A DNA stretch of 61,763 bases, taken from the NCBI GenBank assembly GCA_027487075.1, contig JAIYEG010000011.1, positions 1 to 61,763 of the forward strand, given 5' to 3'. Source of the DNA: a bacterium. Its GTDB lineage: Bacteria > Patescibacteriota > Minisyncoccia > Phycocordibacterales > CALRBL01. Both the position numbers and the translations under genes were made by a program. A model generated the notes under the pieces. That model saw only the letters and a list, made by a program, of their open reading frames with translations, was not told the DNA's origin and made no database searches. Numbering within the stretch: position 1 is the first letter of the stretch; the number at the start of each line of letters is the position of its first letter. Positions 2,211-58,089 of the stretch are shown in pieces.

Positions 2211-2239
2211 TTGACCTATCTATATTTTTATGGTAATAT
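2211..2239 (+). promoter_or_regulatory. Sigma-70-type promoter TTGACC-N17-(TGg)TAATAT, 8 nt before the ATG at 2248 (near-leaderless)
   Basis: TTGACC at 2211-2216, TAATAT at 2234-2239 preceded by TGG, and no Shine-Dalgarno sequence before the ATG. Confidence 0.55.
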
Positions 2240-2247
2240 TTGCTTAA

Positions 2248-2655: not shown

Positions 2656-2679
2656 CCACGGCCCAAATTCAAAACCCAA

Positions 2680-2717
2680 CAGGGCGAGCCACAAACGGCT
2701 CGCCCTGTTTTCTTTTT
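2680..2717. terminator. Bidirectional intrinsic terminator between convergent genes
   Basis: Stem CAGGGCGAGCC / GGCTCGCCCTG with a 6-nt loop, followed by a T-run. Confidence 0.7.
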
Positions 2718-5665: not shown

Positions 5666-5754
5666 TCGCGTATAGGCATAGTAGCATATTTTGGGGAGAG
5701 TTCGAGTTTAGGTCACACAGCTCGTATAAAAGGTTAATAATATGACCTAAAACT

Positions 5755-5785
5755 GAAATAAAAAAGAGAGCTGGTCAGGCTCTCG
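5755..5785 (-). terminator. Intrinsic terminator after the 5812-6201 gene
   Basis: Stem GAGAGC / GCTCTC with a 7-nt loop. The A-run on plus is a U-run on the minus transcript. Confidence 0.6.
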
Positions 5786-5811
5786 TTGATTTTGACCGTT
5801 TTAAGTTGAAA

Positions 5812-6201
5812 CTATGCCACTTTAGGCAGACGTGAATCACTTGTCACGTCCATGGTGAACCGCAAACAGCGGAGTTCAGCATCAGCAGCAGCCACAAGGC
5901 GGGCGACTGCAAAACGCTTGAACCTGGCGCCGCAGCGTTCCACTTCCTCAATCGCTTTTCCAAGCGGGAGGAAGTAATTATCGAGCACTTCTTTGAGTCG
6001 GACAGCGACCGTGGTCATGTCCGAATCGTCGAGGTCGAGTTCCGCCGCCATTCCGCTGATGTGGTGTGCCTGAGCTTTGAAGCGCCCGAGCATAGTTTTG
6101 GCGTGTGCGAGATCGATTTCGGGAAGCAAAGCCCCAAAGAGTGCCTCGGTATGAATGAGACGGTTAGGCACCGTGTCGTAGCCGTTTGGGATCAGTTTCA
6201 T
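5812..6201 (-). CDS. GC-rich hypothetical protein with no signal peptide
   Basis: 129-aa ORF with visibly higher GC than its neighbours. It has a TTGACG-N17-TTAAAT-like promoter upstream (minus strand, about 6205-6250) and its own terminator. Confidence 0.55.
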   Translation of the reverse strand: MKLIPNGYDTVPNRLIHTEALFGALLPEIDLAHAKTMLGRFKAQAHHISGMAAELDLDDSDMTTVAVRLKEVLDNYFLPLGKAIEEVERCGARFKRFAVARLVAAADAELRCLRFTMDVTSDSRLPKVA

Positions 6202-13000: not shown

Positions 13001-13257
13001 ATCTTATTCTCCTTTGCATAGAATTCATCGAACTTTGGCTTTTCGAGTTCAAAGCTGGTGAAGTCGAGTTCGAACTTCTTGTCTGAGTAGTCCTTAATAG
13101 ATGAGAACTCAGCAAAGACTTCTTTCAAACCAGTCTCGAGGAGTTGATTGAATGAATCGATCTGAGCCTCCACCATGTTTGGAAGAGGAACGAGGGGCTT
13201 TTTGAACTTACCGAAATACTTCTTCTTAAGCTTACCTGGAGCGTGTTGATGCGCCAT
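10006..13257 (-). CDS. rpoB: DNA-directed RNA polymerase subunit beta
   Basis: 1083 aa with typical beta-subunit motifs (GRHGNKGV, FGEMEVWAL, the rifampicin-cluster region SQLSQFMQQ). Confidence 0.96.
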   Translation of the reverse strand: MAHQHAPGKLKKKYFGKFKKPLVPLPNMVEAQIDSFNQLLETGLKEVFAEFSSIKDYSDKKFELDFTSFELEKPKFDEFYAKENKMSYEAPLKVMVRVKNKTFGSVKEQEIFMADFPLMTDHGTFIINGIERVIVPQLARSFGIFFTSEELKGRNYFGAKIIPARGAWIEIESDPDGAIYVRIDRKRKFPVTTLLRVLGGVKGSLSNDQILALFDGKPEAKKAIEMTLAKDHAKSADESFIEIHKRLRDGDLATVENAREFVGSIFGAERYDLSPIGRLSFNKRFGKSVEEKDLARKTIDLDDAVTTISHIAELNNTTGVEADDIDHLGSRRVRYVGELLAQKIRVGMSQIKRNIQNRMSTIDTDASLPVQFISPRPLQARIKEFFTTNQLSQFMQQENLLTELEHLRTVSALGPGGLTRERAGFEVRDVHPSHYGRICPIHTPEGPNIGLVLHLSAYARINEFGMIETPYAKVTKGKVTDEIVYMNALEEEGFNIAHAATNTDEKGVITDDIVEVRVKGRPAVVKKEDIHYMDIATNQAYSVATSMIPFLNHDDANRTLMGSNMQKQGTPCVIPEAPIVATGIEGHAALDTKRVIVAPSAGTIKYVDAQRIVFVADKDNKETEYKLAPISRTNQFTAYYQRPQVSLGQKVAKGDVLADASTSDHGEIALGQNVFVAFMTWSGANYEDAIIISERLVKENKFASIHIEEFVVNVRDTKLGPEITTPDIPNVGEHRLKNLDEEGIVRIGAEVHPGDILVGKITPKGETQLTPEERLLRSIFGEKSRDVKDTSKRMENGKKGRVIGVKVFSREKGEKLESGIIKRIHIEVAQLRSVSVGDKMAGRHGNKGVISRILPEEDMPYMADGTPIDVILTPLGVPSRMNLGQILEIHLGMAAHTLNYQAIVPAFAGATDVEIKEELKKAGLPEDGKIELFDGRTGETFDQRIAVGYMYVMKLHHMVEDKIHMRSIGPYSLITQQPLGGKAQGGGQRFGEMEVWALSGHGAAHTLREVLTIKSDDIQGRSAAFDAIVKGQKIPQSNVPASFSVLLNNLRGLALDVELMRGTEDMTTEVIEHEAGDTNRSTQ

Positions 13258-13404: not shown

Positions 13405-14703
13405 CTAAAACTCGCCGTACCCAGGATTCAACCGACAAACAGGGTCTGGAGTAAAGCGAACAGTCTTTGGCCCACCCTGATCAGCAGTACTACTATCAGT
13501 ACATGTAAAGGTGTGGGTACCGACGGAAACAGGCACAAGTACATTGTTATACGGATAAGGAACGGTAAGACCATCAATACTACATGTTACCGCTCCATTA
13601 CCAGCTGATGTAAGTGTCCAGTCAGAGAGATAACATGAACCACTTGGTGTCGTTACCAAACGAGGGCTGAGGTTATATGTCCCTGGAGTCAGATCATTAT
13701 TCACTGATGGAACACATACCCCCGCAACAACAGTTCCTCCTGTAGCACCACAATCAAATGAGCAACTTTGTGTAGAAGGGATAGGGTTTGGTCCAGTTCC
13801 ATTACATGTCCAATTGATTCTTGTTGAAGTATCTGGGAGGCTGGTATCTGGAGCATTATTTGGTCCACACGTATTGATTGCTGTTCCACATGATGCAGGA
13901 TACGATGTTGCCGGCACATAACAATTCCCTGCATCATCCACCTCACCAGGGGGCACTGTAGTCTGAACATCAGGATGTCCTACATCAGTACACATATCAG
14001 GGTTAAGCTCGGCATCCCACCGCATCCATCCAAGCAAAGCTGAGCCCCATCCCCATCCATTACCATTAAGCCCGCTCACCGAATAAGCGTTTGCTCCGGT
14101 CTTTCTCAGACTAATCCACCCATCCCATCCCCCCATCCTCTCACCGCTGGTTGGATTCGATGCATCAGGAATCTGAGAAACGACACGCGCCCATCCTTCC
14201 ATATAGTCATCATTAGAATTAGCAGGTGTTCCATTGTTATTGATTCTTGCATGAGTCGCAACCGTACCTGGAGCCCTTGCTACCGTAGGCACCGTTCCTG
14301 CACCTGAACCAAAGACAATCCATCCATAATTATCTGACCATGCATATCCGGTTAAATAACGGAATCGATTGCCAGTAAGAGGGCCCGCATTCACCCCATA
14401 ATCATACGATGTACCACTTTGAGGACAATTTCTATATTGACTTATGGACGGTGGAAGGGGTTCGTACAGATTATCACCATCTGGATCACAATTGAGACTA
14501 TTAAGACTGATCCACCCTGCTCCACCACTCGCAGCACCATTAGCATCTTCTACTCCATTATTAAGATATGCCTCAGCCCATATCCACCCTCGCACATTAT
14601 GACTTCCACCAGCATCAGCCTTATTACTATTAATAAGATATAAAGATACCGCCACTACCACACAAGACACCCCCATGAGTCCAAAGAAAAAATATTTTTT
14701 CAT
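13405..14703 (-). CDS. Secreted Trp/Gly-repeat, Cys-rich surface protein ending in PGYGEF (cassette copy 2, large subunit)
   Basis: 432 aa with a signal/anchor (cleavage-like ADA|GGSHNV). It has six GW-type repeats (GWIWAEAY, GWISLNS, GYAWSDNYGWIVFG, GWARVVS, GWDGWISL, GWGWGS..GWMRW) and a DPDGD Ca-like motif. Twelve C-terminal Cys are conserved with the paralog at 18247-19560. Confidence 0.8.
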   Translation of the reverse strand: MKKYFFFGLMGVSCVVVAVSLYLINSNKADAGGSHNVRGWIWAEAYLNNGVEDANGAASGGAGWISLNSLNCDPDGDNLYEPLPPSISQYRNCPQSGTSYDYGVNAGPLTGNRFRYLTGYAWSDNYGWIVFGSGAGTVPTVARAPGTVATHARINNNGTPANSNDDYMEGWARVVSQIPDASNPTSGERMGGWDGWISLRKTGANAYSVSGLNGNGWGWGSALLGWMRWDAELNPDMCTDVGHPDVQTTVPPGEVDDAGNCYVPATSYPASCGTAINTCGPNNAPDTSLPDTSTRINWTCNGTGPNPIPSTQSCSFDCGATGGTVVAGVCVPSVNNDLTPGTYNLSPRLVTTPSGSCYLSDWTLTSAGNGAVTCSIDGLTVPYPYNNVLVPVSVGTHTFTCTDSSTADQGGPKTVRFTPDPVCRLNPGYGEF

Positions 14704-14769
14704 AAACTAATACAAAGTATATCAGCTAAACCTAGATTATTCTATAACTTTCATAGTTTATGTGGATAT
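14704..14769 (-). promoter_or_regulatory. Promoter region of the 13405-14703 gene: extended -10 (TGaTATACT) with an ATATCCACA motif 39 nt upstream
   Basis: On the plus strand, AGTATA lies at 14716-14721 and TGTGGATAT at 14761-14769. The architecture matches the region upstream of 18247-19560. Confidence 0.5.
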
Positions 14770-14783
14770 CTTATAGAAAAAAT

Positions 14784-14811
14784 TTGACAATATATATAAA
14801 AAATGTACTAT
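14784..14811 (+). promoter_or_regulatory. Sigma-70-type promoter for the PEP-CTERM-like gene
   Basis: TTGACA at 14784-14789, 16-nt spacer, TACTAT at 14806-14811. AAGGAG lies about 7 nt before the ATG at 14873. Confidence 0.5.
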
Positions 14812-14872
14812 AAAACTCGAACTTGACTTGCAAAAGTCATCCGTCCTCAACAAAAAAACAAGGAGAATATCC

Positions 14873-15619
14873 ATGAAGTACGCAGCTTTTGTTTTTATGG
14901 TTGCACTTCTGTGCAGCCTTCTTCAGTCCCAGGCACAGGTTCGTGTATGGGATCAGACTGGGTCGTGGGAATTTAAAGACGACCTCTTCTACATTTTCGT
15001 GAAGAAAGGTGATGGGAGCGCTGATCCACAGGGTGGCAGCTTTACCCCAGAAGCCTTCCTCAAGGGAAGCGCAGAAGGTTCCACCGATATCACCACCACC
15101 AGAGGACACTTTGCGTGGACCGCCGAACCGCAACGAATAGCAATAGAGTTCGACAAGGATTCTCGCATCCTCACCTTAGAGGTGGGAAACGGCACAGGAA
15201 TGCTCACGCTCACCCGTACGGTGCGGAGCGACATGATCTTCAACGGTCTGTCGTTTGCAGCACTTATCAACCAAGGAAACGTGAATGCTCCAGCAGGTGT
15301 CGTCAGCTTCACACTGACAAACCTTAGGATTGGCCTTAACGAGCCCATCCGCATGGAGCTCAGCATGAGCAATCCAGGAAGGCCTACTGATGTACCTGAG
15401 GTCGTGTACACATGGGACCCCCATGGTCAACAGACCAGTTTCTCGGGGAGTGGCTACATCACCGCCACGAATGGGTGGGACTGGAACAGAGCAATCGTCA
15501 TCGGTCCGATGTGGATGACGGCACCAAACGCTCTGCCGACTCCTGAACCCTCATCAGGAGTGCTGGTATGGATTGGGCTCCTCTCCCTCTACGGCGTTGC
15601 AAGGCAGAGGCTGAAGTAA
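14873..15619 (+). CDS. GC-rich secreted protein with a PEP-CTERM-like C-terminal sorting signal
   Basis: Start chosen at MKYAAFVFMVALLCSLLQSQAQ (signal peptide, AAGGAG RBS). The C-terminus is ...PTPEPSSGVLVWIGLLSLYGVARQRLK: PEP motif, hydrophobic helix, basic tail. It lies on the opposite strand to the surrounding cassette. Confidence 0.7.
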   Translation: MKYAAFVFMVALLCSLLQSQAQVRVWDQTGSWEFKDDLFYIFVKKGDGSADPQGGSFTPEAFLKGSAEGSTDITTTRGHFAWTAEPQRIAIEFDKDSRILTLEVGNGTGMLTLTRTVRSDMIFNGLSFAALINQGNVNAPAGVVSFTLTNLRIGLNEPIRMELSMSNPGRPTDVPEVVYTWDPHGQQTSFSGSGYITATNGWDWNRAIVIGPMWMTAPNALPTPEPSSGVLVWIGLLSLYGVARQRLK

Positions 15620-15635
15620 CACCACAGAACGTCAA

Positions 15636-15672
15636 ACGGCACACTCTCTCGGGAGTGTGCCGTTTTGTTTTT
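15636..15672. terminator. Bidirectional intrinsic terminator
   Basis: Stem ACGGCACACTC / GAGTGTGCCGT with a 6-nt loop, then TTTTGTTTTT. It sits between the convergent stops at 15619 and 15685. Confidence 0.75.
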
Positions 15673-15684
15673 ATGAAATACACA

Positions 15685-16410
15685 CTAATTCTTTCTGCAA
15701 TAAAGTAACTGTATATAAGGAGCATTTGTGCCAGGCTTAGCACCTCCATCAACATCTCGAGTCTCCGCGGCAGGCACTGATGCCATCTGACTACCTGGAA
15801 GCGCATCATTATTTGTCACGATTCCAGTCGCTACACTTCTCCAATACGCATATGTATGCGTATGTGCTCCGGTTGGCACATTTTGTCCATCAGTAAGTGG
15901 AGTACCGACCGTTGCACCTAAAGTACCACCGGGCCTCAATCCGACGATATATCTTCCTTCAGAACCACCTGTTGTTCCACTGTATGGTGATGGGGATCCA
16001 GCGATATCTTTTGTCCACCCAACCGGACAAGAAGTTCGATTGAACGCAAGAACACCTCCTGAAGGAATTGGTCCTTTTCCTTGTGGACCCTGCGGACCTT
16101 GTAAGCCAATGGTAGACATCGTCCTACAGTTCAAACCATTATCATCACAATATTCTGTTGCTCCCAAACTCCCCTTTACAAGCACAAGAAGATTAGAAGG
16201 AACGGTCATGTTTGTATTAGCAAATAAATTCGAAGATCCACTTGATCGAAAACCTGAAACTCCCAGTGGTCCAGCCTTAGTTTGAGATGTTGCATCAGTT
16301 CTTAATGGTCGAGGAGGATTGCCTCCTGGTGGAACCTCGGTAGAACCCGACCACGCATACACACTTGATACACTTGCCAACATAATAAAGGTGAGAATGA
16401 TAATTTTCAT
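15685..16410 (-). CDS. Secreted collagen-like / tail-collar-like fibre protein (copy 2, chain c)
   Basis: 241 aa. Signal VYA|WSGS, YCDDNGLNC, GLQGPQGPQGKG, VPSGGVLAF..CPVGW..GRYIVG, TGAHTHTY, C-terminal GTNAPYIQLLYCRKN. Confidence 0.8.
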   Translation of the reverse strand: MKIIILTFIMLASVSSVYAWSGSTEVPPGGNPPRPLRTDATSQTKAGPLGVSGFRSSGSSNLFANTNMTVPSNLLVLVKGSLGATEYCDDNGLNCRTMSTIGLQGPQGPQGKGPIPSGGVLAFNRTSCPVGWTKDIAGSPSPYSGTTGGSEGRYIVGLRPGGTLGATVGTPLTDGQNVPTGAHTHTYAYWRSVATGIVTNNDALPGSQMASVPAAETRDVDGGAKPGTNAPYIQLLYCRKN

Positions 16411-16413
16411 ATA

Positions 16414-17160
16414 TTAATTTTTTTCACAATAAAGCATCTGAACATATGGCGCATTTGTTCCCGCTCGACCAGTAGCGTTGTCTGTTTTTGGTGTGCTATC
16501 GACAGCCATTTGACTACCAGCAATTTTTGATGTCTTTTCACCAGTGTAGGAAGCAGTGATCCTCCAGTACGTATACGTATGCGTATGTGCTCCGGTTGGT
16601 CGATTTTCTCCTTCGCTCAAGTTGTCACCAATCTGTAATCCGAGCCTACCACCATTATTGAGCCCAACAACATATCTTCCATCCGCAGGAGAGAACCTTG
16701 TCCATCCACTAGGACACACCGATGTAGAAAAAGGCACCACCGCCCCACTTGGTACGGTAGTTTCTCCTGGTAATCCTGCTAAACCTGCGGGGCCATCTAT
16801 AGCCATATCAAGGATCGTCTTACAATTTTGGGCATTATCATCACAGTAACGTGATGCTCCGGTATTTCCGTTTATTGCAAGCGTGAGTGTTGTTGGTGGC
16901 CACGATGCTCTCGTCGAAGACGAGAACCAACTTGCTCTATAAGGTGAAGCATAAAAAGGCATTGCGATGGAACGAAATCCTCCAACGGTGAGTTGGCCGG
17001 GAATTAATTGTGTGACATCACTGGTATTAACCGGCGGAAGAACATTACCTCCAGGCGGTGGAGCTGTTGGTCCACTCCACGCAAACGCATTACTTATAGA
17101 TAAAGTAAGCACGAGTGCAAGTAAGACAATTTGTATATTTTTATAAAAGAATGTTTTCAT
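16414..17160 (-). CDS. Secreted collagen-like / tail-collar-like fibre protein (copy 2, chain b)
   Basis: 248 aa. Signal AFA|WSGP, YCDDNAQNC, GPAGLAGLPGET, CPSGW, GRYVVG, TGAHTHTY, GTNAPYVQMLYCEKN. Confidence 0.8.
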   Translation of the reverse strand: MKTFFYKNIQIVLLALVLTLSISNAFAWSGPTAPPPGGNVLPPVNTSDVTQLIPGQLTVGGFRSIAMPFYASPYRASWFSSSTRASWPPTTLTLAINGNTGASRYCDDNAQNCKTILDMAIDGPAGLAGLPGETTVPSGAVVPFSTSVCPSGWTRFSPADGRYVVGLNNGGRLGLQIGDNLSEGENRPTGAHTHTYTYWRITASYTGEKTSKIAGSQMAVDSTPKTDNATGRAGTNAPYVQMLYCEKN

Positions 17161-17164
17161 GCTA

Positions 17165-17941
17165 TTAATTTTTTCTACACATCAAATACTGAACATATGG
17201 AGCATTTGTTGCACCCGCACCAGCAGCTCGTGTGGTTCCGCTGGTAAGACCCATTTGATTTAACGCAAATGTCGATGATACGTTTGTATATCCTACATAT
17301 GTTGGCGGTGTAGGTGAGAATGTATAGGTATACGTATGAGTATGCGCTCCCGTAGCAACGGCCTGTCGATCATTGAGCGCAGTACCTACTTGTCTTCCCA
17401 CCTGACCTCCAGGATTTACCCCCACAATATATCGCCCTTGCACCTCAACATATTCAGACCACCCACTTGGACACGATGTAACATTTGAAAAAGCAACCAC
17501 ACCACCTGATGGCATTTGTGCTGTGCTATCAGGTCCTGCCGGTCCTGCCGGTCCTATATCACCAAAATCAGTTGCCCTCAAACAATTCTGACCATTATCA
17601 TCACAATACTGAACTGAGCCTATTTTTCCATTTACACCCAACATCAAACTTCCAAGACCAGTCCAGCCAACACGCGTTTCATTAGAAAAGTAATTACCTC
17701 CAGAGGATATCGAGTGTAGACCACCATTAACTTTAAGTGTGCCATACTTCTCTTGCCATGAACTTCCTGTATTGAGAGGAGCTAGTGCATTATTTCCTGG
17801 TGCTACTCGTGTAGGAACTGACCATTCAGAAATGGTCGTAGGGGCAGTAATAGGAGCCGATTGAGAAAATACTTGAATCGCACCAATAAACACCAGTGAG
17901 AAAGTACCCGCTTTTAGGAATAAACTACTATATTTTTTCAT
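17165..17941 (-). CDS. Secreted collagen-like / tail-collar-like fibre protein (copy 2, chain a)
   Basis: 258 aa. Signal peptide, YCDDNGQNC, GPAGPAGPD, CPSGW, GRYIVG, TGAHTHTY, ATNAPYVQYLMCRKN. Its start overlaps the upstream gene's stop by 4 nt (ATGA). Confidence 0.8.
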   Translation of the reverse strand: MKKYSSLFLKAGTFSLVFIGAIQVFSQSAPITAPTTISEWSVPTRVAPGNNALAPLNTGSSWQEKYGTLKVNGGLHSISSGGNYFSNETRVGWTGLGSLMLGVNGKIGSVQYCDDNGQNCLRATDFGDIGPAGPAGPDSTAQMPSGGVVAFSNVTSCPSGWSEYVEVQGRYIVGVNPGGQVGRQVGTALNDRQAVATGAHTHTYTYTFSPTPPTYVGYTNVSSTFALNQMGLTSGTTRAAGAGATNAPYVQYLMCRKN

Positions 17942-18183
17942 CTTTCGATAAGATACTTATCCATATCTTTCACTTCTTCTCTGTTAATGTCTTGAGACGG
18001 CCGCACTAGACGACTATCCATCACCTGAAACTGTTGCTCGACAGTAAGCCTATCCCACTCATCATGCACTGAACGAGGTGTATTCAAATTAAAACTTAGT
18101 GACAGAGTAAAGATAGTGAGGGTAATAAAAATAATAGTATACAAAATAAAATGTGTACCCGTATATGTAATACGATGTTTCAT
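17938..18183 (-). CDS. Small single-pass membrane protein, first gene of cassette copy 2
   Basis: 81 aa, MKHRITYTGTHFILYTIIFITLTIF..., with a charged C-terminal tail. It is a paralog of 22144-22401 (shared R-I-x-Y-T-x-x-HFILYT-x-IF). Confidence 0.7.
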   Translation of the reverse strand: MKHRITYTGTHFILYTIIFITLTIFTLSLSFNLNTPRSVHDEWDRLTVEQQFQVMDSRLVRPSQDINREEVKDMDKYLIER

Positions 18184-18194
18184 ATCTTATTTTG

Positions 18195-18240
18195 ATTATA
18201 CTGTGATTATGATTACATTGACAAGTAACGGTTATCCACA
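18195..18240 (-). promoter_or_regulatory. Promoter of cassette copy 2: TGTGGATAA-N7-TTGTCA-N18-TATAAT-N11-ATG (read on minus)
   Basis: On the plus strand: ATTATA 18195-18200, TGACAA 18219-18224, TTATCCACA 18232-18240. Confidence 0.65.
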
Positions 18241-18246
18241 AACCAC

Positions 18247-19560
18247 TTAGAATTCACCGTAACCTGGACTACGTCGACAAACTGGATCAGGATTAAAGCG
18301 AACTGTCTGTGGCACAGGACTACTATCACGACAAGTGAGCGTATGTGTACCTACTGTTAGATTTGTACTATTGGTTCCTGTGTATGGAATATCTGCTCCA
18401 CCATTTATCTGACAGTTTACTTGTCCTACTCCTAGTGAAGTGAGTCGCCAATTCGAAAGTCTGCATGTTTCTGAAGGAGAATTTACAAATCTTGGAATAA
18501 GATCATATCCTCCTGCAGCAAGTGGGGTACTAGATGCTACACACACTTCACCTTGGATAATCTGACCTGCAGGACATGGGTAACTACATGTTGTGTCTTC
18601 AGCTGGAACCGGATTGGAACCACTACCTCGACAGGTCCATCGCAAGGTCGTTCCGGTGTTTGCCGGTGAATTTGTTATGACCGTGTTACCCATACCACAT
18701 CCATTTTGTTGAGTGTTCACACACTGTGCTGGGTATACAGGAGTTGGGATAGTACATGTACCATCCACATTTCGCACATAAGGATCTTGCACTGTATTTT
18801 GGATGCCATCCAGATTACTACACATATCCGGATTAGTATCAAACAATTGCCACTGCATCCACCCCATAAGACTTGATCCCCATGACCATCCTGGATTCGA
18901 CGAACGGGCCATTACTCTATACGTAATAGGACTTGCAGTCGTACTTGCTTTTCCAAGGCTTATCCATCCACTCCAGTCACCTGTTTTTTTTGAAAGACCA
19001 GTTCTTTGTGATACCACACGAGCCCAACCTTCGATATAATCATCGTCTAAGGTTGGCGTATTATTGTTGTTAATACGTGCGGCAACCGGAGTCAGTCCCG
19101 CTCCAGTAGGATAACCTGCTCCCGCGGCAGCAGTTCCAAATCCGATCCATCCATAATTATCTGACCATGCATAGCCAGTTAAATTTCTATATCGATCACC
19201 TGGCTGACCCGAAGCAGAAACACCATAATCATATGCTATTCCAGATTTTGGACAATTTTGATACAACCGTACACTTTCCGGAATAGCTTCATACTGCCCA
19301 TCTCCGTCAGGGTCACAATTTAAGCTATTAAGACTAATCCATCCTGAACCGCCATTTTGGGAACCCAATGCAGTTTCTGCAGGATCTTCTATTCCGTTAC
19401 CATTTTGATCAACATATGCTTCAGCCCATACCCACCCTTTCACATTATGACTCGATCCCGCCTCAGCATCAGGTGTTTTTCTTAAAAAAAACATCGCGCC
19501 TAACGAAAGTACTGAGGTAATAGTAAACAATGCGATGACAATAATAATTTTCTTTTTCAT
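18247..19560 (-). CDS. Secreted Trp/Gly-repeat, Cys-rich surface protein ending in PGYGEF (cassette copy 1, large subunit)
   Basis: 437 aa, paralog of 13405-14703. It has the same GW repeats (GWVWAEAY, GWISLNSLNCDPDGDG, GYAWSDNYGWIGFG, GWARVVSQ, WSGWISL, GWSWGSSLMGWMQW), the same 12 Cys positions and the same C-terminus SPGYGEF. Confidence 0.8.
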   Translation of the reverse strand: MKKKIIIVIALFTITSVLSLGAMFFLRKTPDAEAGSSHNVKGWVWAEAYVDQNGNGIEDPAETALGSQNGGSGWISLNSLNCDPDGDGQYEAIPESVRLYQNCPKSGIAYDYGVSASGQPGDRYRNLTGYAWSDNYGWIGFGTAAAGAGYPTGAGLTPVAARINNNNTPTLDDDYIEGWARVVSQRTGLSKKTGDWSGWISLGKASTTASPITYRVMARSSNPGWSWGSSLMGWMQWQLFDTNPDMCSNLDGIQNTVQDPYVRNVDGTCTIPTPVYPAQCVNTQQNGCGMGNTVITNSPANTGTTLRWTCRGSGSNPVPAEDTTCSYPCPAGQIIQGEVCVASSTPLAAGGYDLIPRFVNSPSETCRLSNWRLTSLGVGQVNCQINGGADIPYTGTNSTNLTVGTHTLTCRDSSPVPQTVRFNPDPVCRRSPGYGEF

Positions 19561-19577
19561 AAGAATCTTTACCCTAA

Positions 19578-19631
19578 ATTATAGCAATATATCGATAATA
19601 AACTATCACCATCGCAGTAACATGTGGATAA
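19578..19631 (-). promoter_or_regulatory. Promoter region of 18247-19560: extended -10 (TGcTATAAT) with TTATCCACA exactly 39 nt upstream
   Basis: On the plus strand: ATTATA 19578-19583 followed by GCA, and TGTGGATAA at 19623-19631. Confidence 0.55.
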
Positions 19632-19683
19632 CTATGTATGGATGTTTGACATACGTCAGCACCCTCCTCATACTCACATCAGT

Positions 19684-19716
19684 CAAAGCGGCACTCTTGC
19701 GAGTGCCGCTTTTGTC
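19684..19716. terminator. Intrinsic terminator after chain c of copy 1
   Basis: Stem AGCGGCACTC / GAGTGCCGCT with a 4-nt loop and T-rich flanks. It resembles the hairpin at 15636 in the equivalent position of copy 2. Confidence 0.65.
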
Positions 19717-19717
19717 T

Positions 19718-20482
19718 TTAGGAGACTTTTCTGCAGTAAAGTAACTGAACATAAGGTGCGTTGGTTCCAGGCACCAGAGAGGTGTTTGATGACGATATAT
19801 CCCCTCCCAGAATTGCCGGGTATCCTGGAGTTACGTAGGTTACCGTTGTACCATCATTACCTTGTTCAGAATTACCATCAGTTCTGGTGAAAGATACATT
19901 ATTCGGGTTATCACTACCAAGAACAAGATGTGTATGTGCACCTGTAGGACGATTAGCCAAATTCGACAATCTTGTTCCCACAACGGTTCCTATAGATCCA
20001 CGTGGTGATGCTCCCACAATATACAAGCCAGGGCCTGCATTGTTATCAAGTGGTTGCCATCCCAAATTGGCTGGGCACGATGTGCTTCTAAAAGCCGCGA
20101 TCGCACCAACGGGCACAGTACTCGTACCTTTAGGACCTACAGGCCCTGGTGTTCCACTTGCATTGATGGGCCTACAATTTCTTCCTAAATCATCACAGTA
20201 CTGAGATGCCCCTATACTTCCTCCTCTTACGGTAAGCACGAGATTTGAAGGAGGGTTAAATACACCTGAAGAGAAGGTTGATTGCCCCATTGCATAGAGT
20301 CCACGGGTAAACAAAATACCATCTTTTGTTTGACTACCTGATCCCACATTGATTGGTCGTACAGAGTTATTACCAGGAGCAATCTCATCGTTTCCTGACC
20401 ACGCATCAGCAACAGCCGAGACACTAAAAAGTAGTGCGATGATGAGCATAATTTTTAGTGTATTAACATTCTGTGTTGTCAT
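19718..20482 (-). CDS. Secreted collagen-like / tail-collar-like fibre protein (copy 1, chain c)
   Basis: 254 aa. Signal ADA|WSGN, YCDDLGRNC, GTPGPVGPKGTS, CPANLGW, TGAHTH, GTNAPYVQLLYCRKVS. It shares PSNL-L-V-GS-GA-YCDD with 15685-16410. Confidence 0.8.
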   Translation of the reverse strand: MTTQNVNTLKIMLIIALLFSVSAVADAWSGNDEIAPGNNSVRPINVGSGSQTKDGILFTRGLYAMGQSTFSSGVFNPPSNLVLTVRGGSIGASQYCDDLGRNCRPINASGTPGPVGPKGTSTVPVGAIAAFRSTSCPANLGWQPLDNNAGPGLYIVGASPRGSIGTVVGTRLSNLANRPTGAHTHLVLGSDNPNNVSFTRTDGNSEQGNDGTTVTYVTPGYPAILGGDISSSNTSLVPGTNAPYVQLLYCRKVS

Positions 20483-20491
20483 ATAAATAAA

Positions 20492-21274
20492 TTAGTTTTT
20501 AATACAATAAAGTAGCTGGATGTATGGAGCATTGGTTCCTGGAATATGATTTGATGAAGGTTGTGTAGCAAATGAAGCAGCTGCTCTGGTAATAGGTACA
20601 CTTCTTACAAGATATACATCATTTCTTGGGCTGCCTGACATACGAGAATTTCCCAACCCCCCATTTGGCACAGTTGGTCCTGTTATAGTCCGATTAATAT
20701 AATTTACTGTGTGTATATGATTTCCAGCTGGCCTGTTTTCACCATCTGAAAGAGCTCTCCCTACGGTTCTTTCTAAATTAGTTCTTGCTGTAGCGTTTGC
20801 AAGACCAACAACATATCTGCCTTGTGCTGCAGTATACAAACTCCATGTCGAAGGACACTGTGCCAAATCAAAAGCAACCACGGTACCTGCAGGCACAGGG
20901 TCACCAACCGGACCCTGAGGTCCAGCTGGACCAGAAGTAATCACATCACTAAACAATCGACAATTAAGACCATTATCATCGCAATATGACGCTGCGCCAA
21001 TAGAACCATTTGCTGCTAACGTAAGATTTCTTGGGGGCCACGAGGCTCTCGTCGAAGTTGAAAACCACGCCGTTCCTAACGAACCATACCCTCTTACCGT
21101 AAGCATCCCTGAAATTTCTTGAAGAACATTTGTCGTATTTACTGGAGACGGCATATTATTATTTGGAGGAATACCTGTAGGACCTGACCACGCAAGTGCA
21201 TGCGAAGAAGAAACTATCACTAGTGCAACCAATGACACACTAAAGATGGTACATATGTTTTTAAGTGTTTTCAT
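20492..21274 (-). CDS. Secreted collagen-like / tail-collar-like fibre protein (copy 1, chain b)
   Basis: 260 aa. Signal ALA|WSGP, WFSTSTRASWPP (shared with 16414-17160), YCDDNGLNC, GPAGPQGPVGDP, GRYVVG, AGNHIH, GTNAPYIQLLYCIKN. Confidence 0.8.
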   Translation of the reverse strand: MKTLKNICTIFSVSLVALVIVSSSHALAWSGPTGIPPNNNMPSPVNTTNVLQEISGMLTVRGYGSLGTAWFSTSTRASWPPRNLTLAANGSIGAASYCDDNGLNCRLFSDVITSGPAGPQGPVGDPVPAGTVVAFDLAQCPSTWSLYTAAQGRYVVGLANATARTNLERTVGRALSDGENRPAGNHIHTVNYINRTITGPTVPNGGLGNSRMSGSPRNDVYLVRSVPITRAAASFATQPSSNHIPGTNAPYIQLLYCIKN

Positions 21275-21280
21275 GTGAGA

Positions 21281-22141
21281 TTAATTTTTTCTGCAATAAA
21301 GAAACTGAATATATGGCGCATTGGTTCCAGGAACACCCTCATAAATAGCTGCCATGTTATTTGGTCTTAAATCAACATCTGCGCTTACAAACTCCAAATG
21401 ATCGAAATCATTTTTGCCATCTTGATAGAAAATAACCCTGTGGGTATATAAAATCCTATTATTTCCATCACGTAAAGGTTGACCATTAGTTCCTCGTCTT
21501 GGCTCGATCATTGCAGCTGTATCGATCATATTTCTTTGATACGAGAATACATGAGTTCCGTGTTCTCCTGTTGGTCTATTTTCTTCATTATCCAATCTTG
21601 TACCGCGCGTTGTTCTTACCGCAGAAGGTGAATTAGCTCCCACAATATATCGTCCTTCAGCTTCAGAAAAATATGACCACCCATCCGGACATGATGTGGC
21701 ACTAAAAGGCATTACCGCTCCACTTGGCATCACAGGTGCAGATGGCCCAGCCGGACCTCGTGGCCCCACCATCAACGCAGTAACTGAACGACAGTTCCCT
21801 CCATTCTCATCACAATACGCCCTTGCACCAATAGAACCATTCACCGCCAACATAAGATTAGAGCGGGGCCAAGCGCTACCATCAGGATTTCTTGTACGTG
21901 TCGATGTTGAAAACCACCCTGTCCCCAATGATCGAAAACCACCCATAACCCCTAAGATGCCGAGCTTTTCTTGTGGAATATTTGAAGTAGTTAGAGGAGC
22001 AACAACATTTCTTGAATTAGCGGTTGAAGGAGAGCCAGTGGTAGGTGCCGTCCATGCGTGCACCTGAGTTGCTATCACAAAGAAAGCCACTACGGCTACA
22101 ATTTTTGATACCACTGTCATGTGTTTAAAATAGGTTTTCAT
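21281..22141 (-). CDS. Secreted collagen-like / tail-collar-like fibre protein (copy 1, chain a)
   Basis: 286 aa. Signal VHA|WTAP, YCDENGGNC, GPRGPAGPS, CPDGW, GRYIVG, TGEHGTH, then a ~72-aa insert before GTNAPYIQFLYCRKN. Confidence 0.8.
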   Translation of the reverse strand: MKTYFKHMTVVSKIVAVVAFFVIATQVHAWTAPTTGSPSTANSRNVVAPLTTSNIPQEKLGILGVMGGFRSLGTGWFSTSTRTRNPDGSAWPRSNLMLAVNGSIGARAYCDENGGNCRSVTALMVGPRGPAGPSAPVMPSGAVMPFSATSCPDGWSYFSEAEGRYIVGANSPSAVRTTRGTRLDNEENRPTGEHGTHVFSYQRNMIDTAAMIEPRRGTNGQPLRDGNNRILYTHRVIFYQDGKNDFDHLEFVSADVDLRPNNMAAIYEGVPGTNAPYIQFLYCRKN

Positions 22142-22143
22142 AA

Positions 22144-22401
22144 TTAATAGGATGTAACTCGTAGCTTCATAACTTCGTAAGCATCTGTATCGTTTATCAC
22201 ACCACTAACAACACGGGACGACATTTCATCAACCTGTTTTTCCCACTCCTCTTCTGAGAGAGTAGTTTCATTTTGGAGAGGAGTAGCATGGTTTATCGAC
22301 TGATTAATTTCTTTCAAGAGCAAGGTACCTACTACAAGAGCAGTAAAAATAACCGTATATAAAATAAAATGCGAGTACGTATACTGAATGCGCGTATCCA
22401 T
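22144..22401 (-). CDS. Small single-pass membrane protein, first gene of cassette copy 1
   Basis: 85 aa, MDTRIQYTYSHFILYTVIFTALVVGTLLL..., with an acidic C-terminal tail. Paralog of 17938-18183. Confidence 0.7.
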   Translation of the reverse strand: MDTRIQYTYSHFILYTVIFTALVVGTLLLKEINQSINHATPLQNETTLSEEEWEKQVDEMSSRVVSGVINDTDAYEVMKLRVTSY

Positions 22402-22410
22402 GCTTTAATC

Positions 22411-22454
22411 ATTATACGTTCTTGCACGACACCGTGACAAGATACTTATCCACA
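22411..22454 (-). promoter_or_regulatory. Promoter of cassette copy 1: TGTGGATAA-N5-TTGTCA-N18-TATAAT-N9-ATG (read on minus)
   Basis: On the plus strand: ATTATA 22411-22416, TGACAA 22435-22440, TTATCCACA 22446-22454. Confidence 0.65.
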
Positions 22455-22456
22455 AA

Positions 22457-23155
22457 TTACTTCTCTTTTTTCTTTCCTCGCTGTTCCCTCCACTGATCTA
22501 TGAGCTTGTGATTACCTGAAAGCAGCACCTTCGGCACTTTATAGTTTTTTCCTTTGTAGCTGAGCACTTCGGGACGAGTATAGACTTCAGATGATGCAGT
22601 GCGTGATTCTTCGAGTGATTCAAATGAGCCGAGTACTCCCTTGATTTGACGAGCAATTGTATCGATCACCACCATTGCAGGGAGTTCTCCACCTGTGAGG
22701 ACGTAATCACCAATAGAAAGCTCTTCTGCTTTGAGAATTTTGACCACACGCGCATCCACTCCTTCATAGCGTCCGCAAATAAGAATGATATCGGTGTATT
22801 TCTTTGCAGTTTTCTTTGCGTACGCTGTTTCAAGTTGAGTACCGCTTGGAGAAAAGAAAATGATCTTTGGCTTCTTTGCATCTTTTATCTTCGCAATAGC
22901 CTCACGCGCCGCATCTACCGCTTTGAGCACCGGCTCAGCCTGCATCACCATACCAGGCCCGCCCCCATACGCTTTATCATCAATGCGCAAATACGGCTTT
23001 TCATTCTGCTTCTGTCCTTCGGTGGGCTCTACATAGTCACGAGGGTTATAAAACGCATATTCGATGAGCCCTGCTTTTTGTGCACGCAAAAGAATCGACT
23101 CATTGATATATGAATCAAACATATGCGGAAAAAGAGTGATGATGTGAAAACGCAT
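22457..23155 (-). CDS. trmD: tRNA (guanine37-N1)-methyltransferase
   Basis: 232 aa, MRFHIITLFPHMF..., ICGRYEGVDARV, GDYVLTGGELPAMVVIDT. Confidence 0.93.
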   Translation of the reverse strand: MRFHIITLFPHMFDSYINESILLRAQKAGLIEYAFYNPRDYVEPTEGQKQNEKPYLRIDDKAYGGGPGMVMQAEPVLKAVDAAREAIAKIKDAKKPKIIFFSPSGTQLETAYAKKTAKKYTDIILICGRYEGVDARVVKILKAEELSIGDYVLTGGELPAMVVIDTIARQIKGVLGSFESLEESRTASSEVYTRPEVLSYKGKNYKVPKVLLSGNHKLIDQWREQRGKKKEK

Positions 23156-26036: not shown

Positions 26037-26550
26037 TGGCGCCCTTCGAAGGGCGCCATCCTCGGGCACTACTGTAAGGATACACATCCTCAGTCTCAAC
26101 TATTCCCGCCCTCACCGGATTTTTATGAATATATTCAATTAAATATTGATATTGCTCATCATTCTCAATAAGAACAGCCTTAAATCTATCTTGAAAAAGT
26201 GTACCCACACGATTGTATTTTTTATTAAAGTACTTTGCATAGCTCGTACACACTTTAACCATGAGTCTACTTATTGAAATATCAGCATTTTGCCTAAGAA
26301 GAATATGGTAATGATTCGGCATTAAGCAATAGCAAACAAGATCAATACTACCCAATGGAATTGGGATTCTAATGTAAATATTATTTTTAGATACTTTTTG
26401 TTTTTCAATTGATAGAGCTTCGAATATTTTCCTAAGAAAAAACGAATAATCTTGATGATCAAGAAAAATATTCATTCTAGCTGTTCCCCGATTATAAACA
26501 TGGTAAGAACAACCAGCAGAAAAGTTTTTATAATCTCGATTATTTCTCAC
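26014..26550 (-). mobile_element. REP-associated tyrosine transposase (RAYT, IS200/IS605 Y1 family TnpA-like)
   Basis: 178 aa with HUH motif (LMPNHYHILL) and catalytic-Tyr region (YIHKNPVRAG). It is AT-rich compared with its neighbours and flanked by identical 26-bp palindromes. Confidence 0.8.
26035..26060. repeat. REP-like perfect palindrome, left copy
   Basis: GATGGCGCCCTTCGAAGGGCGCCATC is its own reverse complement and overlaps the rnr stop codon by 2 nt. Confidence 0.9.
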
Positions 26551-58086: not shown

Positions 58087-58089
58087 GAA

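Follow-up and report, generated by a model that had tools for sequence, protein, structure and literature searches.

Introduction

The mosaic adhesive trimer (MAT) fibres of Bdellovibrio bacteriovorus are located on the surface of this predator, which uses them to bind glycans of its prey; they combine a signal peptide and a conserved N-domain with trimeric tips that vary (PMC10769870). Pam pili have recently been solved in a CPR bacterium; the Pam pilins are two-domain Ig-like subunits that are connected by donor-strand exchange and involve PapD-like chaperones, and they occur mainly in Saccharimonadia and Microgenomatia (bioRxiv 10.64898/2026.03.03.709456).

Here we describe a locus within a stretch of 61,763 nt (the window) from a bacterium that probably belongs to the Patescibacteria (candidate phyla radiation, CPR), which are ultra-small and host-dependent; the organism itself would thus also depend on a host. 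From the sequence we propose that its products are adhesive fibres on the cell surface, with phage-type tips that can be swapped, and that this system has been amplified to six chains, and we rate the chances of this reading as slightly better than even. The locus is a good candidate for the way in which CPR bacteria recognise surfaces or hosts.

Organization and duplication of the modules

The ORF listing contains two collinear minus-strand modules, each with the genes m, chains a, b and c, and L (Table 1), in agreement with the first-pass annotation, ORF positions included. The two modules had been described as having the same make-up, and this is correct for the gene order, but they differ in content, because the gap between c2 and L2 carries an additional gene, X; this gap comprises 981 bp, compared to 157 bp for the gap between c1 and L1.

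Table 1. Genes and putative regulatory elements of the locus (positions in the window).
Feature	Position	Strand	Description
TTATCCACA box	22446-22454		just upstream of the module 1 promoter-like site
Module 1 promoter-like site	22411-22440	-	TTGTCA-18-TATAAT, 11/12 match
m1	22144-22401	-	85 aa, single-pass membrane protein; acidic tail C-terminal to helix
a1	21281-22141	-	chain, 286 aa; matched by the HMMs of the N-domain (E 5.6e-36) and the C-domain (E 3e-46)
b1	20492-21274	-	chain, 260 aa; 4 Gly-X-Y triplets, HIH, GTNAPYIQLLYC tail
c1	19718-20482	-	chain, 254 aa; architecture as in a1/b1
Terminator-like hairpin c1/L1	19685-19712		12-bp, G+C-rich, A and T runs on flanks
L1 upstream region	19578-19631	-	TTATCCACA box 19631-19623 and extended -10 TGcTATAAT 19586-19578, read from sequence
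L1	18247-19560	-	437 aa; GW-repeat/Cys-rich
TTATCCACA box	18232-18240		by the module 2 promoter-like site
Module 2 promoter-like site	18195-18224	-	TTGTCA-18-TATAAT, 11/12 match
m2	17938-18183	-	81 aa, single-pass membrane protein
a2	17165-17941	-	chain, 258 aa
b2	16414-17160	-	chain, 248 aa
c2	15685-16410	-	chain, 241 aa
Terminator-like hairpin X/c2	15634-15665		14-bp perfect, G+C-rich; between convergent X and c2, both directions
X	14828 or 14873 to 15619	+	in c2-L2 gap; listed ORF start TTG 14828
Promoter-like site near X	14784-14811		TTGACA-16-TACTAT
TATCCACA box	14761-14768		upstream region of L2
L2	13405-14703	-	432 aa; L1 paralogue

An all-against-all BLASTP comparison revealed reciprocal best matches for L1/L2 (46% identity, E 1e-111), b1/b2 (46%, E 3e-63) and m1/m2 (41%, E 2e-9). 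The best match of a1 is b1, that of a2 is b2, and c1 has its best match in c2, but c2 in b2. The first-pass annotation had held that position-matched genes are each other's closest relatives, and had named a lack of reciprocity as an argument against its view; the claim stands for m, b and L, and the counter-argument is half borne out, by the a pair and c2. Neighbour-joining trees are poorly resolved. The C-domains of a2 and c2 are 64% identical, and a DNA patch of 53 nt with 85% identity links c2 with b2; the C-domains of module 2 thus look homogenised, and concerted evolution within this module is likely. Tandem duplication of the cassette followed by divergence, as had been proposed, is the simplest reading of the collinearity, given that m, b and L pair up by position and that the promoter block is duplicated as well; the chain triplication may have come before or after the cassette duplication. 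An assembly artefact as source of the two modules is excluded by their divergence (41-46% protein identity).

A six-frame translation of the window confirmed that the motif WFS.STRASWPP is confined to b1 and b2. The motif PSNL.L.V.GS.GA..YCDD, which had been assigned to the c chains, is found in none of the chains as written, but its looser form PSNL.{5,8}GS.GA..YCDD occurs in c1 and c2 only.

Both modules are opened by one and the same promoter-like site (TTGTCA-18-TATAAT). The perfect TTATCCACA 9-mer has only three copies in the window, and the box is present upstream of m and of L, both in the window and in the related locus L002. The genes might be co-regulated, as is suggested by the box that four promoter regions have in common. 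A terminator and a promoter had been predicted between c and L; terminator-like hairpins do follow c1 and c2, but the gap in module 2 also holds the conserved plus-strand gene X.

Gene X

For X, ATG 14873 is the likely start; the protein would then be aligned with the N-termini of the orthologues and begin with MKYAAFVF... X is a predicted secreted protein with a PEP-CTERM-like tail, which is composed of PTPEPSSG, a hydrophobic stretch and ARQRLK. Its layout is that of PEP-CTERM/exosortase substrates (TIGR02595), in which a signal peptide and a beta-rich domain are followed by a PEP motif, a hydrophobic helix and a tail of basic residues. With the TIGR02595 model, which has a cut-off of 16 bits, the L001 orthologue reaches 19.7 bits and the L002 orthologue 21.3 bits, and the window copy has no match to this model at E<=1. 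X is conserved at this position in four related assemblies; in L001, L002 and L018 it is located between chain and L and has the opposite orientation. No exosortase was found within the 62-kb window, which encodes a sortase and an IPATG-type substrate. The latter pair points to a monoderm envelope, in which PEP-CTERM sorting would be unusual. The PEP-CTERM signal goes together with exopolysaccharide and envelope biology.

Architecture of the chains

The signal peptides of the chains terminate with ..A|W, as read from the sequences. At the start of the mature chains are a motif that is conserved over about 35 residues, AW[TS]xPTxxPPxxNxxxP[ILV]Nx5QxKxGxL, and a Cys-Cys loop, YCDDNGxNC, which are followed by a stalk of three to four Gly-X-Y triplets, on their own too few for a stable collagen helix. 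For example, a1 is composed of a signal peptide, the AW-T-x-PT N-motif, a YCDENGGNC loop, three Gly-X-Y triplets and the collar-like C-domain, in which HGTH replaces HxH. The C-terminal domain of about 130-170 aa contains an invariant Cys pair, a conserved HxH, a hypervariable stretch and the conserved end GTNAPYxQxLYCxK. Among 36 diverse family members C15, C132 and H61 are invariant and H63 nearly so (numbering from the start of the b1 C-terminal domain), while the stretch after HxH is just 10-34% identical among the six paralogues of the window.

At E<=1e-3 the C-domain family comprises 5,028 representative sequences (clusters at 50% identity), and this large branch of more than 5,000 representatives is unrecognised by Pfam, NCBIfam and PHROGs. 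The components encoded in the window had no match in these three databases (ten proteins were scanned against PHROGs, all but m1), and Pfam Collagen did not match the chains. The domain is located at the extreme C-terminus in 148 of 179 occurrences, and directly follows long collagen repeats (PF01391) in the homologues P0016, P0018 and P0088.

At the fold level the C-domain appears to resemble the phage tail-collar/T4 gp10-gp12 head-domain class, as judged from a poor structure model of b1 (mean pLDDT 59). In a Foldseek search of predicted structures of viral proteins (BFVD) with this model the named matches among the top 14 were 'phage tail collar domain' or MdpB (best E 2.7e-4, probability 0.93). 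All eight PDB matches belong to the phage fibre class (6OV6 C24 fibre tip, 9NXK Pa223 tail fibre, T4 gp10 C-domain, T4 gp12 and baseplates), with E values of 0.02 to 4.4, individually non-significant. The TM-scores of the Foldseek matches are about 0.2. The C-domain is also encoded on seven IMG/VR viral contigs, on one of which (L028) its gene follows a tape-measure gene and two further ORFs, and a typical family member matches tail-fibre genes of Synechococcus myophages (E 7e-6). The syntenic chain in L023 has a sub-threshold Gp10_C match (E 0.006, 100/139 profile positions), and a chain in L036 contains the classical collar motifs GEENHTLTVSEIPSHTH ... QPSIALLYCQKN.

L proteins and conservation of the neighbourhood

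L1 consists of an N-terminal hydrophobic helix, a GW-repeat domain of about 240 aa, a Cys-rich Ig/PKD-like part and the C-terminal PGYGEF, in which both L proteins end, as had been noted before. L1 and L2 have 14 Cys columns in common, not 12 as first counted, and 11 of these are invariant in four orthologues. The N-terminal GW domain is found in more than 1,000 clusters, whose source-named members are all Patescibacteria, and has no PDB relative by sequence or by fold. Within the GW family, conservation is highest in this domain. An extreme C-terminal motif of the family, ..PxWKE[IV]xPF or ..NPxYxE[FI], is present in its strict form in 61 of 120 proteins, and at least 90% of the alignment retains its Glu.

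The genes for m, a fibre with the AWTGPT N-motif and a GW protein are adjacent in nine of the 11 independent CPR loci that were retrieved with the GW domain and have enough flank (L001, L002, L005, L006 (Saccharibacteria), L007, L019, L035, L036 and L037), and also in L014, which was retrieved with a chain. In all relatives examined, the chain gene comes after a gene for a small transmembrane protein, and m and chain occur without a GW gene nearby in L017 and L021-L027. The unit is not strictly the five-gene cassette of the first-pass annotation; the conserved core elsewhere is m plus chain, usually beside a GW protein, and in this lineage L is found together with X.

The locus occupies a hypervariable slot between trmD and rpoB, and these two genes bound the slot in every relative found with both flanks on the contig. 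In relatives with about 90% RpoB identity it contains m and one or two chains, with at least six tip types across these relatives, and tips differ even between strains with identical RpoB. In L019 two chains have near-identical N-halves and different tips, and three of the four chains in L036 have recognisable tips, i.e., GP38 (PF05268), Gly_rich_2 and Gp10_C.

Discussion

In the proposed fibre system the chains would be exported by the Sec pathway and would form trimers by means of the collar-like C-domain and the few collagen-like triplets. If T4 gp12 and gp37 are a guide, a metal ion on the three-fold axis could be bound by the HxH histidines. The hypervariable stretch would be displayed as a distal binding surface, and the conserved N-terminal motif would keep the fibre on the cell, with the co-encoded GW protein L and/or m as likely docking partners. 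Triplication of the chain gene and duplication of the cassette would have led to six different tips and two L variants, and the six chains might form six homotrimers or two a/b/c heterotrimers. The six tips may widen or alter the range of ligands, most plausibly structures of the host cell surface. The locus had been put forward as a candidate for host attachment or recognition, and such a role fits, because the tips are of the phage-receptor-binding type and variable between relatives, and the slot is hypervariable. MdpB-type collar-domain proteins are common in free-living bacteria, which counts against the proposed reading.

The fibres could also be structural parts of the envelope or matrix, e.g., a nap or coat like the collagen-like BclA filaments on Bacillus exosporia, or a scaffold for cohesion or biofilms, with L and X as envelope-anchoring partners and without host recognition. 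Collagen-like triplets before a C-terminal trimerising head, as in BclA- and C1q-type proteins, the PEP-CTERM-type tail of the neighbour X, the polysaccharide genes at the end of the window, and a C-domain family that is widespread outside the CPR (e.g., in Vibrio and Planctomycetota) are all in agreement with this explanation. It is nonetheless rather doubtful, as tip swapping between strains with about 90% identical or even identical RpoB and phage adhesin-type tips (GP38, Gp10_C) would not be expected for a purely structural coat, and with about 210-260 mature residues the fibres are short.

It is unlikely that L and the other GW proteins polymerise into, or form the stalk of, a pilus-like filament of the CPR type, which would carry the chain trimer as an adhesin at its tip and depend on m as a membrane-anchored assembly factor. 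This explanation, which is modelled on the donor-strand-exchange Pam pili, would replace the anchoring mechanism and leave the function the same. GW proteins do terminate in Ig/PKD-like domains, their family-wide C-terminal motif could be a donated strand, and the GW/chain clusters of L019 and L037 adjoin PilB or PilC genes. However, neither a PapD-like chaperone nor an usher nor a Pam-type pilin was detected at the locus, m has no Pfam match above the cut-off, GW conservation peaks in the repeat domain and not in a linker strand, each module has three chains but a single L, and several relatives lack a nearby GW gene.

Phage receptor-binding-type tips and a hypervariable, amplified locus, which is typical of arms-race loci, might likewise indicate defence or competition, with the fibres as decoys, receptor-masking or bacteriocin-like binders against phages or competitors. 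This is very unlikely, because no toxin, lysis or immunity gene adjoins the chains, and because the conserved N-motif and the membrane partners argue for retention on the producer's surface. Hardly any credence can be given to a phage-derived locus (prophage remnant, tailocin fragment or phage-carried fibre module) with products that belong to a virion: the C-domain does occupy the tail-fibre position on viral contigs and in cyanophages and all fold matches are phage proteins, but there is no significant PHROGs match for the ten proteins scanned and no other phage gene in the trmD-rpoB slot, virion fibres lack the Sec signal peptides and the CPR-specific N-motif of the chains, the partners m and GW protein are cellular, and a single mobile-element gene was found in the window, an IS200-like transposase (26014-26550), which is located outside the locus.

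Comparison with known systems

The first-pass annotation knew of no described system with this composition. For the neighbourhood of m, chain and GW protein no description was found in the searchable literature, but the C-domain appears to resemble a known fold class. The chains share with the phage collar/T4 gp10-gp11-gp12 class (PF07484, PF21939 Gp10_C, MdpB) the start PxGxhxxF..CPxGW, the HxH and the hydrophobic C-terminal strand ..PYhxLxYC; it is the sole class that Foldseek returned with the b1 model, and the C-domain occurs in phage tail modules. In contrast to that class, neither the six chains nor the 36 family members match PF07484 at E<=10, and the segment from 'GW' to the Gly-rich loop is much shorter than in the classical Collar consensus.

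As in the collagen-like proteins of the Bacillus BclA and C1q types, a globular domain at the C-terminus comes directly after Gly-X-Y triplets. The PF01391 repeats are long in homologues that share this head, and three adjacent paralogous chains recall the A, B and C chains of C1q. However, the window chains have only three to four triplets, and no search identified the head as a C1q/TNF jelly-roll.

Like Pam pili, the fibres would be a CPR-specific, Sec-exported surface filament without a trans-envelope machine, and the two systems have in common membrane-anchored accessory proteins and Ig-like domains with disulfides. The Pam study reports a 'tail fibre-like protein' that is consistently encoded beside the pam operon, which would also fit a pilus, but it does not describe the GW domain or AWTGPT chains (bioRxiv 10.64898/2026.03.03.709456).

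MAT fibres are beta-helical proteins of 900-1,150 aa, often with an S74 chaperone-protease, in contrast to the chains of 240-290 aa described here; neither a partner with a GW domain nor a small membrane protein has been reported with their genes, and the window organism is probably a monoderm CPR bacterium. Common to both are secretion via a signal peptide and a conserved N-domain directly after it, which is proposed to sit on the surface of the producer (PMC10769870), as well as phage-fibre-like trimers (predicted here), exchangeable C-terminal tips, many paralogues per genome, and a producer that must recognise other cells, as would also apply to the window organism. By analogy, the overall logic of the locus thus seems to match that of the Bdellovibrio MAT fibres (PMC10769870).

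A duplicated, putative fiber locus between trmD and rpoB

The best-supported reading of the eleven genes between rpoB and trmD is a surface fiber system with a constant cell-proximal end and interchangeable tips of the phage-adhesin type. The genes form two modules, each with a small single-pass membrane protein (m), three paralogous fiber chains (a, b and c) and a GW-repeat protein (L); the eleventh gene, X, sits between c2 and L2 and is read from the other strand (see the table).

The first-pass annotation had proposed a tandem duplication of the five-gene cassette, which was borne out: the duplication is real and old. In an all-against-all BLASTP comparison of the locus proteins, L1 and L2 (46% identity, E 1e-111), b1 and b2 (46%, E 3e-63), and m1 and m2 (41%, E 2e-9) were reciprocal best matches, and the promoter-like sites of both modules are found inside a duplicated DNA block (repeats D16 and D20). 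The sequences of the m, b and L pairs and of the promoters thus support duplication of the cassette. Similarity at the DNA level persists only in patches that are 60-85% identical. An assembly artefact was rejected, as the two modules are just 46% identical at the protein level.

The claim that all position-matched genes are reciprocal best matches holds for m, b and L, but not for the remaining chains, as the best match of a1 is b1, and that of both a2 and c2 is b2. Three details had to be corrected: PSNL.L.V.GS.GA..YCDD, proposed as a c-chain motif, has zero matches as written; L1 and L2 have 14 common Cys columns instead of 12; and the c2-L2 gap, described as a mere terminator and promoter, contains X and spans 981 bp, compared to 157 bp between c1 and L1.

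The two chain domains differ in their relationships. In the N-domain b1 and b2 are closest (61%), a1 is nearest to b1 (58%), and c1 is nearest to c2. It is the module 2 chains that are alike in the first C-domain half (a2-c2 64%, b2-c2 58%). This likeness, the GAHTHTY.Y motif common to the three module 2 chains, and a 53-nt patch with 85% identity between c2 and b2 (repeat D5) point to gene conversion within module 2. Neighbor-joining trees, built with outgroups for the N-domain and for the C-domain, gave no resolution of the order of triplication versus duplication.

Features of the locus, of its relatives and of other parts of the window (positions refer to the window unless another locus is named)
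Feature	Position	Strand	Remark
rpoB	10006-13257		slot boundary
L2	13405-14703	-	module 2
C-terminal GW-family motif	13405-13422		L2
TTATCCACA, 8-mer copy	14761-14768		upstream of L2
X	14828-15619	+	likely start 14873
G+C-rich hairpin	15634-15665		3' of c2
c2	15685-16410	-	module 2 chain
b2	16414-17160	-	module 2 chain
a2	17165-17941	-	module 2 chain
m2	17938-18183	-	module 2
Promoter-like TTGTCA-18-TATAAT	18224-18195	-	start of module 2, 11/12 positions
TTATCCACA	18232-18240		upstream of m2
L1	18247-19560	-	module 1
C-terminal GW-family motif	18247-18264		L1
Extended -10 TGcTATAAT	19586-19578	-	L1
TTATCCACA	19623-19631		upstream of L1
G+C-rich hairpin	19685-19712		3' of c1
c1	19718-20482	-	module 1 chain
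b1	20492-21274	-	module 1 chain
a1	21281-22141	-	module 1 chain
m1	22144-22401	-	module 1
Promoter-like TTGTCA-18-TATAAT	22440-22411	-	start of module 1, 11/12 positions
TTATCCACA	22446-22454		upstream of m1
trmD	22457-23155		slot boundary
IS200-like Y1 transposase	26014-26550	-
Sortase substrate	39266-40375	-	adjoins sortase
Sortase	40422-41111	-
TTATCCACA in L002	5008-5015, 7072-7079		upstream of m and L
IS200-like Y1 transposase in L002	972-1487
TTATCCACA in L021	950-957		upstream of m
Additional stretch in L022	8248-9187		between m and chain
IS200-like Y1 transposase in L022	20145-20672

Putative co-regulation of the chain operons and L

The 61.7-kb window contains three copies of the 9-mer TTATCCACA, which we take to be the DnaA-box consensus, compared to about 0.6 expected, and all three are in the fiber locus. 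In L002, a homologous locus of a relative, the 17.7 kb contain just two copies, one 30 nt before m and the other 38 nt before L; L021, another relative, has a single copy, 52 nt upstream of m. As this motif precedes m and L both in the window and in relatives, co-regulation of the chain operon and L is suggested, and TTATCCACA is a candidate operator common to the promoters of the locus.

Probably trimeric chains with a phage-like head

All chains have a common layout, i.e., a signal peptide ending with ..A|W, an N-motif, a Cys loop (YCDDNGxNC), three to four Gly-X-Y triplets and a C-domain. The mature N-terminus reads AW[TS]xPTxxPPxxNxxxP[ILV]Nx5QxKxGxL. The C-domain starts with PxGxVxxF..CPxGW...GRYxVG...ENRPxGxHxH, continues after HxH with 37-73 hypervariable residues (10-34% identity among paralogues), and is completed by GTNAPYxQxLYCxK. 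Across the family, HxH and a Cys pair of the domain show no or almost no variation.

A profile search of 1.84 billion representatives retrieved 5,028 proteins with the C-domain at E<=1e-3, and 659 at E<=1e-30. It is located at the extreme C-terminus in 148 of 179 cases and is preceded in various homologues by collagen repeats, F5/8 type C, Laminin_G_3 or a pilin-type N-terminus. The collagen HMM PF01391 is matched by three homologues with the same C-domain (P0016, P0018, P0088), but not by the window chains with their three to four triplets each. No Pfam family was found at E<=1 for five of the six chains, no Pfam match, including Collar (PF07484), was obtained for the C-domain of the window chains, and none of 36 members of the C-domain family matched PF07484 at E<=10. 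Pfam, NCBIfam and PHROGs yielded no significant family for the ten locus proteins other than m1. None of the window chains matches Gp10_C (PF21939, the C-terminal domain of the T4 baseplate protein gp10; gathering score 27 bits). The syntenic chain of L023, a close relative, has 17.9 bits (E 0.006, profile positions 33-132 of 139), below the threshold, and a chain of L036, a 489-kb CPR contig, has a precomputed "weak" match and contains classical collar motifs. The collar-like HxH head thus represents a large family (>5,000 cluster representatives) that is unrecognized by these three databases.

Despite the missing Pfam match, five independent lines of sequence and model comparison appear to tie the C-domain to phage fibers, one of them being the Gp10_C match of L023 together with the collar motifs of L036. 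The AlphaFold2 model of b1, based on an alignment of 27 sequences, is poor (pLDDT 59). In a Foldseek search of BFVD, a set of predicted viral structures, with this low-confidence model, the named matches within the top 14 were tail-collar proteins or MdpB (E 2.7e-4 to 0.1, TM about 0.2), and in the PDB all eight matches were fiber tips or baseplate heads (6OV6, 9NXK, 2FKK, 1PDI and others; E 0.02-4.4, TM about 0.2). A passage of PMC11821841 that cites Pellizza 2020 describes 6OV6 (C24) as the receptor-binding protein of a temperate phage of Bizionia argentinensis. Seven IMG/VR viral contigs encode the C-domain, and on one of them (L028) the respective gene lies downstream of a tape-measure gene and two further ORFs. 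A typical, consensus-like family member matched annotated tail-fiber genes of Synechococcus myophages (E 7e-6); b1 itself had no tblastn match in cultured phages, and its sequence retrieved nothing from the PDB. The C-domain profile had one weak PDB match, which is at the HxH motif of the phage long tail fiber 8KEC (E 0.58).

In T4 gp12 and gp37, the HxH motifs of such trimers hold a metal on the three-fold axis, and collagen triplets need a trimer. By analogy, we infer that the chains would form trimeric fibers.

The GW protein L

L consists of an N-terminal hydrophobic helix, a GW domain of about 240 residues with four repeats of the G[YW]AWSxNxGWISF type, and a Cys-rich C-part ending with PGYGEF. 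A profile search for the GW domain, for which only 8,000 candidates were scored, yielded more than 1,000 clusters, and all members with a named source belong to Patescibacteria, Parcubacteria or Paceibacteria. The GW domain is a second large family (>1,000 clusters) unrecognized by Pfam, NCBIfam and PHROGs. In most members it is followed by Ig_Rha78A_N or PKD domains. The AlphaFold2 model of L1 is moderate (120 sequences, pLDDT 67); in Foldseek, the matches of its C-part were generic (Ig, fn3 or PKD), and the GW domain had none. The sequence of L1 retrieved nothing from the PDB, and the GW-family profile retrieved only PKD/Ig domains, in the C-part.

The extreme C-terminus of the family reads ..PxWKE[IV]xPF, ..NPxYxE[FI] or ..INSGGRIE[VI], and no transmembrane segment follows. 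The strict pattern is present in 61 of 120 sequences, with the Glu retained in at least 90% of the alignment. This motif may serve as a docking or donor strand. Full-length homologues of L are very few (P0027, P0028, P0171, P0183). The first three were placed on contigs and lie just upstream of rpoB, in the trmD-rpoB slot where the contig reaches that far. A pattern-based scan of the GTDB representative genomes yielded only N-terminal GW matches and none that spans L completely; the lineage may be absent from this collection, or the scan may have overlooked L. A metagenome scan yielded short contigs only.

Conservation of the neighborhood in CPR bacteria and variability of the slot

HMMs of three domains, i.e., the N- and C-domain of the chains and the GW domain, were applied to all retrieved loci. 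A chain gene adjoins the GW gene in nine of eleven GW-retrieved loci with adequate flanks (exceptions: L011 and L012), and a small single-pass membrane protein is usually encoded between or beside them. Adjacent chain and GW genes are found in L005, L006 (a Saccharibacteria assembly), L007, L014, L019/L020, L035 (Parcubacteria GW2011_GWB1_57_6), L036, L037 and the lineage of L001, L002 and the window. The two chains of L019 (7732-8433 and 9874-10446) have near-identical N-halves of about 130 residues and different tips, and they are separated by an AAA ATPase/DUF4143 gene, which looks like a tip-cassette arrangement. A PilB gene follows about 1 kb downstream of the second chain, and L019 and L037 adjoin PilB or PilC genes. 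In L036, four chain genes with a common N-motif surround the GW gene (2140-5982), and three of the four tips are recognizable, namely as GP38 (PF05268), Gly_rich_2 and Gp10_C.

The trmD-rpoB slot itself was compared across relatives. Among the window, L001, L002 and L017, RpoB is about 90% and TrmD about 73-75% identical. The slot of L017 contains m and one chain of 181 aa, that of L001 and L002 m, one chain, X on the opposite strand, and L, and that of L018 X and L, at which point the contig ends. L021, from the 90% RpoB cluster of the window, has m and two chains with an Ig-like tip, and no L. L022 to L027, with identical RpoB proteins, have m and one chain of 243 aa. The slot contents thus differ across relatives, with m plus chain as the conserved core, and L and X are accessory in the window lineage. 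The N-terminal part of the chains of these relatives is conserved, while the C-terminal parts are mutually unrelated, with at least six tip types in the slot. Of the slots seen, that of the window is the most expanded, with six chains and two L variants.

The chain call in L022 is shorter (230 aa), and, compared to L023 and L026, there are an additional 940 bp between m and the chain, which include a chain-like fragment. The antisense ORF pattern of this stretch suggests that it is the degraded remainder of a second chain, in which case the contigs would differ at the strain level. An IS200-like Y1 transposase gene is present near the conserved housekeeping region in the window, in L002 and in L022.

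Gene X and putative envelope genes of the window

The product of the conserved gene X is secreted and has a PEP-CTERM-like tail. The X orthologues of L001 (19.7 bits) and L002 (21.3 bits) are above the TIGR02595 cut-off of 16 bits; the window X has no match to this model at E<=1 and matches only PEP_NF038129 (E 0.1). The PEP motif is aligned in all four copies, and the remaining tail in the three complete ones; the L002 copy has a weak match to the "choice-of-anchor W" domain. No exosortase (Exosortase_EpsH) was found among the scanned proteins of the 62-kb window. The window encodes a sortase-substrate pair (39266-41111, minus strand), which points to a monoderm-type envelope; the substrate starts with a signal/anchor helix, which is followed by three tandem repeats (one of them Pfam PKD_4) and a C-terminus comprised of IPATG, a transmembrane helix and ARRNEK. 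PEP-CTERM sorting would be unusual in the genome of an apparently monoderm CPR bacterium with a sortase.

At the window end (55888-61208), surface-polysaccharide genes encode an O-antigen-ligase-like protein (Wzy_C) that carries TPR repeats, a glycosyltransferase of family 11 and a Polysacc_synt flippase. No Pfam match was obtained for three further proteins, which are 300-350 aa long (41059-42099, plus strand; 48328-49254 and 58090-59055, minus strand); the first has one transmembrane helix and a Thr/Ser-rich part, which is probably extracellular. No Rfam RNA family was found in the window.

Interpretation and comparison with known systems

From these comparisons we infer the function of the fibers, their trimeric state and their anchoring, as well as what m, L and X would do. 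A role of the fibers in the envelope or a matrix is the first alternative. The second is a Pam-like polymer with the chain as its tip. Pam pili are built from Ig-like pilins with donor strand, and their operon encodes membrane-anchored PapD/FimC-like chaperones. The C-part of L is Ig/PKD-like only in a generic way, and no scanned protein (m1 excepted) has a chaperone-usher-type Pfam match. The Pam preprint goes no further than noting a "tail fibre-like protein", itself uncharacterised, close to the pam operon (bioRxiv 10.64898/2026.03.03.709456). A defensive or competitive role of the fibers is a further alternative. A phage remnant is the least likely explanation, because the slot contains no phage gene and the chains have Sec signals.

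Type IV pilins were rejected, as the chains have no N_methyl Pfam match and no prepilin motif of a class III signal peptide (G|F/M-T-L-I-E), and their N-termini are of the Sec type, ending with ..A|W. An S-layer or known pilus operon was rejected because no domain supports it.

Apart from type IV pili and the recently described Pam pili, little is known about the means by which ultra-small CPR bacteria locate their hosts and stay attached to them. The locus offers concrete candidates, namely, a constant, putative docking motif at the N-terminus and swappable phage-type tips, and it genetically links a candidate fiber to a Patescibacteria-restricted GW protein, in a slot that varies between close relatives. 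Tentatively, and with rather less than even confidence, we propose a Patescibacteria-wide undescribed surface apparatus of three components (m, a GW protein with its C-terminal motif, and short trimeric fibers docked via about 35 residues ("AWTGPT") with swappable collar/gp10, gp38, Gly-rich or other tips) that would set which hosts the episymbionts bind. The window would then contain two amplified three-chain sets, possibly C1q-like a/b/c heterotrimers, and the trmD-rpoB slot would be a strain-level site for host-range cassettes. Saccharibacteria are now culturable and genetically tractable, and a Saccharibacteria assembly (L006) has the same neighborhood; therefore, knock-outs and binding assays are feasible.

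The initial view that no system of this composition has been described needs to be divided. The components are of a recognizable kind, as they belong to the phage-collar-like, collagen-associated trimeric fibers used by cells. In the literature searched, neither the CPR-wide pairing of these fibers with a GW protein and a small membrane protein, nor the AWTGPT N-motif, nor a hypervariable trmD-rpoB slot is described. The nearest known counterpart are the mosaic adhesive trimer (MAT) fibers of Bdellovibrio (PMC10769870). In a comparison of architecture only, the likeness comprises a conserved N-terminal domain directly behind the signal peptide, in all six chains and in chains from at least 15 other loci, and a constant base with a variable, exchangeable C-terminal tip, as seen in the slot relatives, L019 and L036. 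The fibers described here would therefore work like MAT fibers, from which they differ in size, stalk and partners.
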